This document shows positions 41,682-41,715 of a DNA stretch of 64,000 nucleotides, in pieces (within the stretch, counting starts at the first letter, position 1; each line of letters begins with the position of its first letter). The notes beneath the pieces are model-generated. The model did not search any database, was not told where the DNA came from, and saw nothing but the letters and a program-made list of their open reading frames with translations. The position numbers were made by a program, and so were the translations under genes. This DNA comes from an uncultured Bacteroidaceae bacterium (GTDB lineage Bacteria > Bacteroidota > Bacteroidia > Bacteroidales > JAADGE01). The stretch lies in assembly GCA_964472505.1 (NCBI GenBank), contig CAYYQW010000002.1, positions 43,750 through 107,749 on the forward strand. Direction: 5' to 3'.

Positions 41682-41715
41682 AGAGAGAGAGAGAGAGAGA
41701 GAGAGAGAGAGAGAG
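41682..41715. repeat. (AG)17 dinucleotide microsatellite
   Basis: The tract is 34 nt of perfect AG repeat. It lies 160 nt upstream of the C10 peptidase ATG, and no long + strand ORF crosses it. Confidence 0.95.

Follow-up and report, generated by a model that had tools for sequence, protein, structure and literature searches.

The DNA analyzed here, referred to as the window, is a stretch of 64,000 nt from microbial-mat metagenomes (project PRJEB25599, to which a study on microbial ecosystems of the Andes refers). It belongs to an uncultured Bacteroidales bacterium, as indicated by a small SRP RNA of the Bacteroidales type in the window and by Bacteroidales MAGs as its nearest genome hits. 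It contains a two-gene operon for a cysteine protease and a partner lipoprotein, which is separated by a 623-nt intergenic region from a divergent gene for an SDR oxidoreductase. This intergenic region harbors a pure AG dinucleotide tract (Table 1). The initial annotation had taken the gene downstream of the tract for a C10 protease, and domain searches confirmed this assignment: the precursor combines the catalytic domain of peptidase family C10 (Pfam Peptidase_C10, PF01640, 3.9e-28) with an Inhibitor_I69 propeptide (PF13734, 4.6e-09), and its relatives in the PDB are SpeB (7e-17) and interpain A (1.6e-09). The partner lipoprotein had no match in Pfam or the PDB, and a single-sequence AlphaFold model was unusable (pLDDT 34). 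The pairing of both genes recurs in relatives with 46–51% protease identity, in which the lipoprotein signal is conserved as well. The nearest homologue of the protease in the genome collection (46% identity, contig L004, 2193–3482) is split into two ORFs (2193–3038 and 3147–3482), which may reflect a frameshift or a pseudogene.

Table 1 Features of the protease locus, in coordinates of the window.
Feature	Position	Strand	Details
SDR oxidoreductase gene	40493–41251	-	upstream of and divergent from the protease gene
Upstream hairpin modules	41322–41545	.	D2 element 41322–41411; B-A long hairpin 41415–41522; linker remnant
Minus-strand ORF, 144 aa	41323–41766	-	publicly annotated as 'hypothetical protein'; reads (CT)17 as LSLSLS..., crossed 17 codons from the start
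TATATTTG, sole perfect match to the Bacteroidetes-type -7 box TAnnTTTG on the intergenic + strand	41574–41581	+	candidate promoter
AG tract	41682–41715	+	(AG)17, 34 nt
Conserved proximal leader	41754–41874	+	9-bp inverted repeat, weak -7-like boxes
C10 (SpeB/interpain-like) cysteine protease precursor, 430 aa	41875–43167	+	lipoprotein signal, I69-type propeptide
Partner lipoprotein, 151 aa	43178–43633	+	starts 10 nt behind the protease stop codon
Downstream hairpin modules	43660–44342	.	D2 elements 43660–43749 and 44164–44253; 176-nt unit x1.9 43800–44129; terminal A unit 44308–44342

A strain-variable cassette between hairpin modules

The two genes of the operon form a cassette that is bracketed by upstream and downstream modules of repeated, hairpin-forming DNA. 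These modules are built from the D2 element, which is 90 nt long and present in three copies, and from A and B units, 35-nt quasi-palindromes that make up the ~100-nt hairpins upstream of the cassette; the tandem array downstream of it represents alternating A/B hairpins. The folds of the modules reached z-scores of -3.8 to -7.7 overall, with -5.5 and -3.8 for those of the upstream module. With their strong hairpins (z-scores of -4.6 to -7.7) and the alternating A/B array, the modules resemble mosaics of the REP/BIME or MITE type, which are present in many copies across a genome, but here all copies observed reside at the protease locus and none was found elsewhere in ~79 kb of the genome.

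Comparison with other strains showed that this locus differs in gene content. A co-occurring strain (contigs L184, L185 and L186) matches the SDR region at 98% nucleotide identity, but the homology ends inside D2 (~41376–41406) and a DUF3857/Transglut_core/DUF3858 gene replaces the C10 cassette (L184, 1632–3750). In relatives at ~80–83% identity, a HIRAN gene adjoins the SDR gene (L187, 1–2023; L188, 319–1936), and in L187 it is located between the SDR gene and a homologue of the gene at 44477–45667 of the window. Since other strains carry a transglutaminase-core or a HIRAN gene at this position, the protease cassette together with its modules and the tract is a lineage-specific, strain-variable insert, and the locus is a hot spot of gene presence and absence. 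The composition of the cassette showed no foreign-DNA signature. A tRNA-Lys(UUU) gene (39511–39584) and a gene for the Bacteroidales small SRP RNA (46467–46575) flank the variable region at a distance of ~2 kb on each side. Further downstream in the window, a gene for a DUF6577 protein adjoins one for AbiEii (53978–55862), a family of toxins from toxin-antitoxin systems that act by abortive infection.

Two independent k=31 Logan contigs from different runs (L003 and L164, each at position 1) start at exactly 41754, which is 38 nt after the tract; one stems from the window strain and the other from a strain with a 92%-identical protease gene (SRR17886269). The 34-nt tract alone would break a k=31 graph near 41686, not at 41754, and the segment 41754–41783 has no further copy in the window. 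Possibly, the break reflects a structural variant with its right edge at 41753, or the genome contains a further repeat copy outside the window.

The AG tract and its conservation

In the coding orientation of the protease gene, the tract consists exclusively of purines, with ...GCTTTTGT on its 5' side and CAATAGC... on its 3' side. The perfect (AG)17 described in the initial annotation is exact, both by sequence and by TRF, which reported a period of 2, 17.0 copies and 100% matches. The distances given there were likewise accurate, as the tract ends 159 nt before the protease ATG (given as 160 nt) and lies 100 nt downstream of the -7 box (given as about 100 nt). As a sequence, it represents a perfect homopurine mirror repeat. 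A small hairpin (AAAAGC-ACC-GCTTTT, 41665–41679, + strand) was predicted by folding to end 2 nt 5' of the tract.

The rarity of the tract, already noted as very unusual for a bacterial intergenic region, became evident at two scales. In the window and ~15 kb of extra flanking genome (~79 kb altogether), the latter fetched via the two end genes, no other dinucleotide repeat of at least five units was found, and the longest simple repeats after the tract are 9-base homopolymers when all unit sizes are surveyed. An (AG)6 12-mer probe matched inside the tract only; the number expected under dinucleotide-preserving shuffling of the window was 0.04. At 163 other C10-protease loci of Bacteroidota (1.15 Mb), the only dinucleotide repeat of at least six units was a (GA)7, located ~2 kb from the gene. 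Protein-guided scans of two large collections recovered distant C10 loci only, with a best identity of 46% in genome contigs and at most 34% in metagenome contigs, none of them with the repeat, and protease relatives at 49–51% identity showed neither a repeat nor DNA similarity to either intergenic region. Separately, nested tandem repeats with units of 9, 15, 24 and 48 nt (TTCTTTATC-type) were observed at 50271–50530 within an ORF on the minus strand (49997–50728, 243 aa), which has no Pfam match and probably encodes a repetitive charged protein.

The identical 34-nt tract is found in three public assemblies of this strain that are independent of each other and 99.99–100% identical to the window, namely two ENA assemblies made with megahit (runs ERR2407577 and ERR2407578) and one from JGI. 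It is therefore not an assembly artefact: all four assemblies, from three pipelines, agree on 17 units.

A search with the SDR protein recovered a sister strain, L182, in the form of a 19.6-kb contig of the ENA assembly ERZ4787356, which holds the intergenic region and the 5' end of the protease gene and is 94.8% identical to the window over 7.7 kb (34487–42217). The SDR variant of L182 is also carried by Logan contig L183 (run ERR6043686). At the corresponding position, L182 has a perfect (AG)19. The comparison of tract lengths among strains that the initial annotation had suggested thus yielded 17 units in the window versus 19 in L182, with flanks that are 99% identical; this difference rests on two known alleles, that of L182 at ~4x coverage. 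An invariant repeat number in related strains, which the initial annotation had named as a refutation, was thus not observed. Outside the tract, the intergenic region differs by five substitutions and one 1-nt indel (99.0% identity), which exceeds the conservation of the SDR coding sequence (97.0%), the 5' part of the protease coding sequence (95.0%) and the other intergenic regions of the compared stretch (77–94%). Because the region is better conserved than both the flanking coding sequences and the other intergenic regions, the non-coding DNA around the tract appears to be constrained, with the tract as its sole hot spot. Of the 7.7 kb compared, the intergenic region at 35924–36387 is the least similar part, with 77% identity between neighbors of 94–96%.

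Altogether, the tract is real, conserved in position, uninterrupted in two lineages and variable in length. Repeats become unstable from a handful of units onwards, and slipped-strand length change is established for repeats of this size. The uninterrupted repeat of hypermutable length that characterizes transcriptional contingency loci is therefore present in both strains. However, 17 versus 19 units fits a selected contingency tract as well as a neutral microsatellite.

In the neutral case, an AGAG seed in long, repeat-rich non-coding DNA would have been expanded by slippage and would now drift without any effect on the operon. Several observations agree with such an origin: an unusually long intergenic region full of repeated DNA is a permissive environment, the tract is missing from all other C10 loci including the relatives at 46–51% protein identity, the four assemblies of one strain share the same modal length, slippage predicts alleles such as 17 and 19, and, as detailed below, the tract is neither a promoter spacer nor part of an ORF and shows no notable RNA structure. 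On the other hand, neutral expansion to 17–19 units must be rare, since the genome (~79 kb) and the related loci (1.15 Mb) contain no other long pure dinucleotide tract. Furthermore, both lineages have retained a long tract free of interruptions despite a divergence of 1–5% in its flanks, and the DNA around it is not junk, as no other intergenic region of the compared stretch is conserved to the same degree. We consider neutral drift a serious possibility that nonetheless falls clearly short of an even chance. The retention of long pure tracts in both lineages and the constrained flanks would rather lean towards a function, but recent recombination of a mobile cassette could mimic both.

If there is a function, the exact length might also be incidental to it, with the polypurine element acting as a fixed site, for example as an H-DNA or nucleoid-structuring site, as an insulator or transcriptional roadblock that separates the SDR gene from the divergent protease gene, or as a single-stranded purine platform in the leader RNA for an RNA-binding protein. 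A perfect homopurine mirror repeat, the 34–38 bp kept in both lineages within a highly conserved intergenic region and the constant modal length in the window strain are all compatible with such a role. It appears unlikely, however, as homologous operons lack a comparable upstream tract and neither an Rfam family nor a conserved structure was detected. In addition, interruptions should be acceptable if nothing but a run of purines were required, whereas neither allele contains any; this suggests ongoing slippage.

Two further features next to the tract were discarded. A hairpin formed by its 3' end is lost in L182, where a T>G change at 41727 breaks a pair; the small hairpin on the 5' side retains the affected pair as G-U after an A>G change at 41665. 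A 14-nt direct repeat around the tract segment (41574 and 41747, 13/14 identical) resembles a target-site duplication, but was treated as chance, since 9% of shuffles contain such a pair.

Promoter geometry, leader and the minus-strand ORF

The position of the tract has to be viewed relative to possible promoters. The Bacteroidetes consensus comprises TTTG at -33 and TAnnTTTG at -7, as reportedly described by Bayley, Rocha and Smith in 2000. The TATATTTG box is located 294 nt upstream of the protease ATG, whereas 17 other perfect -7 boxes in the window precede start codons by 17–103 nt. If this box is used, the tract would be situated at about +94 to +127 of a ~290-nt leader, and a leader of this length is atypically long. 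By chance, ~0.5 perfect -7 boxes are expected in a region of 623 nt, so that the single match is not significant alone. The identical 8-mer is found 18–39 nt ahead of three more genes in the window, and the box is 100% conserved in L182. From the box onwards, three T-rich units of ~11 nt (TTTTTATTTGC-like, 41572–41608) are also 100% conserved in L182; these phased T-runs could confer intrinsic DNA curvature.

Alternatively, a proximal promoter within 41754–41874 would place the tract tens of bases upstream of the promoter. Such a promoter has to be considered because the 121 nt before the ATG are strongly conserved and contain a 9-bp inverted repeat (GCTGTTAAA, 41788–41796, and TTTAACAGC, 41814–41822) as well as weak -7-like boxes such as TAAGTTTA (41771–41778). 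Of its 121 positions, this proximal leader deviates at four from the strain with 92% identity in the protease gene, where the coding sequence differs by 8.4% and third codon positions by 13.9%, and at two from L182. A 74-nt block that is identical in strain L164 was not regarded as special: the coding sequence contains a perfect run of equal length, and only the overall conservation of the leader was therefore counted. Weighing both options, we consider a promoter at TATATTTG only slightly more probable than a proximal one. Folding of the putative leader RNA was unremarkable (z-scores of -1.8 and -1.5), and an Rfam search of 41250–44470 at gathering and permissive thresholds returned chance matches to miRNA-like hairpins only.

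The initial annotation had considered positions relative to the promoter elements and within the 5' UTR; the tract is indeed non-coding and downstream of the only canonical -7 box, but it does not lie between promoter elements in the manner of a classical spacer. At 34–38 bp it is too long for a -33/-7 spacer and is placed 100 nt past the -7 box, and it is therefore not a promoter-spacer repeat of the hif/Vmm type. Bacteroidales commonly use invertons, and the two Logan contigs breaking at 41754 hint at a structural polymorphism near the tract. However, no inverted repeat pair flanks 41523–41874, and no recombinase was found among the annotated ORFs of at least 120 aa in ~30.5–62 kb. Taken together with a sequencing or assembly artefact, against which the concordance of the assemblies speaks, a promoter-spacer repeat or an invertible promoter is highly improbable.

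The statement of the initial annotation that no + strand ORF crosses the tract is correct, but two ORFs on the minus strand had been overlooked (41323–41766 and 41607–41744). The longer one could in principle be subject to translational phase variation via its (CT)17, as in the CT-repeat outer-membrane protein genes of Helicobacter pylori, since it spans the tract close to its start and is called as a gene by public pipelines. This reading is effectively refuted. The ORF has a codon-usage score of -0.13, as found for nested antisense ORFs and far below every one of the 36 real genes (0.30 +/- 0.075, minimum 0.14); among 5.8 billion proteins its only match was itself, so that no other tract-length alleles were caught either; and it mostly overlies the hairpin modules, which recur in non-coding DNA. 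Moreover, the tract of L182 is 4 bp longer, which shifts the frame. The ORF was thus rejected as spurious, the tract is not located inside a genuine ORF, and the public call of a 144-aa 'hypothetical protein' across it should be dropped.

Possible role of the tract and its relation to known systems

As the explanation we tentatively prefer, though with a little less than even confidence, the tract would be a slippage-prone microsatellite in the leader of the protease/partner operon and would act as a length-dependent modulator of this operon. Replication slippage would add or remove AG units, as reflected by the 17 and 19 units of the two strains. Transcription may begin a few bases past TATATTTG, which would place the tract ~95–130 nt into the 5' leader; as the purine strand would be the non-template strand, this part of the nascent RNA would be pure purine. 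Judging from homopurine biophysics, a longer tract might then favor R-loop or H-DNA formation or alter the leader RNA, and thereby change the yield of full-length mRNA; such a modulation of mRNA yield by tract length is speculative. If the promoter is instead located within the conserved 160 nt that follow the tract, the number of units could alter the distance and helical phase between this promoter and upstream sites. In either case, the population might become a mixture of cells with different protease levels, heritable and reversible, which is likewise a speculative consequence.

Several lines of evidence argue for a modulator. The tract is a perfect repeat without a counterpart in ~79 kb, and its length greatly exceeds what chance would produce. 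Both genes downstream of it code for surface or secreted lipoproteins, and contingency genes usually belong to this class. Furthermore, the only perfect -7 box appears upstream of the tract and shares its 8-mer with three other likely promoters, which would put the tract into the transcribed leader. Against this stand the reading of 17 units in all four assemblies of the window strain, an unremarkable predicted fold of the leader RNA (z -1.8), the lack of such a repeat upstream of any other C10 gene examined, and the possibility that the conservation of the intergenic region reflects recent recombination of a mobile cassette and not selection. Genomes using contingency loci usually hold many of them, whereas ~79 kb contained one such tract. 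With 100 nt to the -7 box and 159 nt to the ATG, there is also no simple on/off mechanism, and a graded modulator ('rheostat') in a long leader is more likely than an on/off switch. Overall, the tract is a credible but unproven candidate of the contingency type, and all explanations other than a modulator, a neutral microsatellite or a fixed element are very unlikely even in sum.

Short-unit, non-coding repeats 5' of surface-protein genes, whose unit number sets transcription, are known from several bacteria. In Haemophilus influenzae hifA/B and in Mycoplasma Vmm, (TA)n repeats lie between the two promoter hexamers, which differs from the situation here. In Neisseria meningitidis nadA, with (TAAA)n, and Mycoplasma gallisepticum vlhA, with (GAA)n, the repeat is upstream of the promoter, and this geometry would fit only if the real promoter is in 41754–41874. 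The closest measured precedent of a graded upstream repeat is Moraxella catarrhalis uspA2, where an (AGAT)n of 13–18 units, located 132 bp upstream of the ORF, confers a ~3-fold graded change in mRNA (PMC7302503). Like this repeat and the poly-G of uspA1 (PMC7302503), the AG tract is upstream of a surface-protein ORF, outside the promoter spacer, and consists of many units in strain-variable number. The M. catarrhalis repeats, however, are a tetranucleotide and a homopolymer in a host-restricted gammaproteobacterium, with a measured effect on mRNA and phenotype, while the present case is built on sequence. The unit itself and slippage are shared with repeats within coding regions, namely the CT repeats of H. 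pylori oipA, sabA and hopZ (PMC10564699) and the (AG)12 of the Mycoplasma mycoides methyltransferase MmyCI (PMC3498834); these repeats shift a reading frame, whereas the tract is not part of any real ORF.

Within the phylum, switching in Bacteroides is ascribed to inversion (PMC11868660; a 2025 review of phase variation). The invertons of Bacteroidales resemble the proposed system in their surface or secreted targets and in population heterogeneity as the would-be outcome, but represent a different mechanism, for which neither flanking inverted repeats nor a recombinase were found at this locus. In our literature searches, neither phase variation driven by repeats in Bacteroidota nor phase variation of C10 proteases yielded a relevant report. 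Repeat-based contingency regulation is thus known as a kind, and its occurrence in Bacteroidota would be new, with the tract as a candidate. A more specific version, in which the tract is the first slipped-strand repeat-number rheostat in Bacteroidota and acts by leader purine-RNA blockage (R-loop/H-DNA) on a hairpin-bracketed cassette varying among co-occurring mat strains, is decidedly unlikely.

The closest counterpart of the operon itself are the C10 proteases of Bacteroides fragilis (Bfp), which have adjacent genes for Bfi inhibitors; bfp and bfi are co-transcribed, and some are located on mobile elements (PMC2873492). As in B. fragilis, a C10 lipoprotein protease is followed by a small lipoprotein gene, and the presence of the locus varies by strain. 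The partner occupies the position of the Bfi inhibitor genes and may be an inhibitor, but shows no detectable similarity to staphostatins or Bfi in Pfam and PDB searches. The cassette is bracketed by hairpin modules and not carried by a conjugative transposon or prophage, and no repeat tract has been described for bfp genes (PMC2873492).

The initial annotation had linked the tract to the switching of surface or virulence genes, and virulence is a poor fit for an organism of Andean microbial mats. If the tract is neutral, it would still be a useful strain marker and a rare case in which different bacterial lineages have retained such a long dinucleotide microsatellite. If its length tunes the operon, the locus would offer a natural test case for length effects of a transcribed homopurine tract, and repeat-based contingency regulation would extend beyond host-adapted pathogens to the Bacteroidota and to a free-living mat community.
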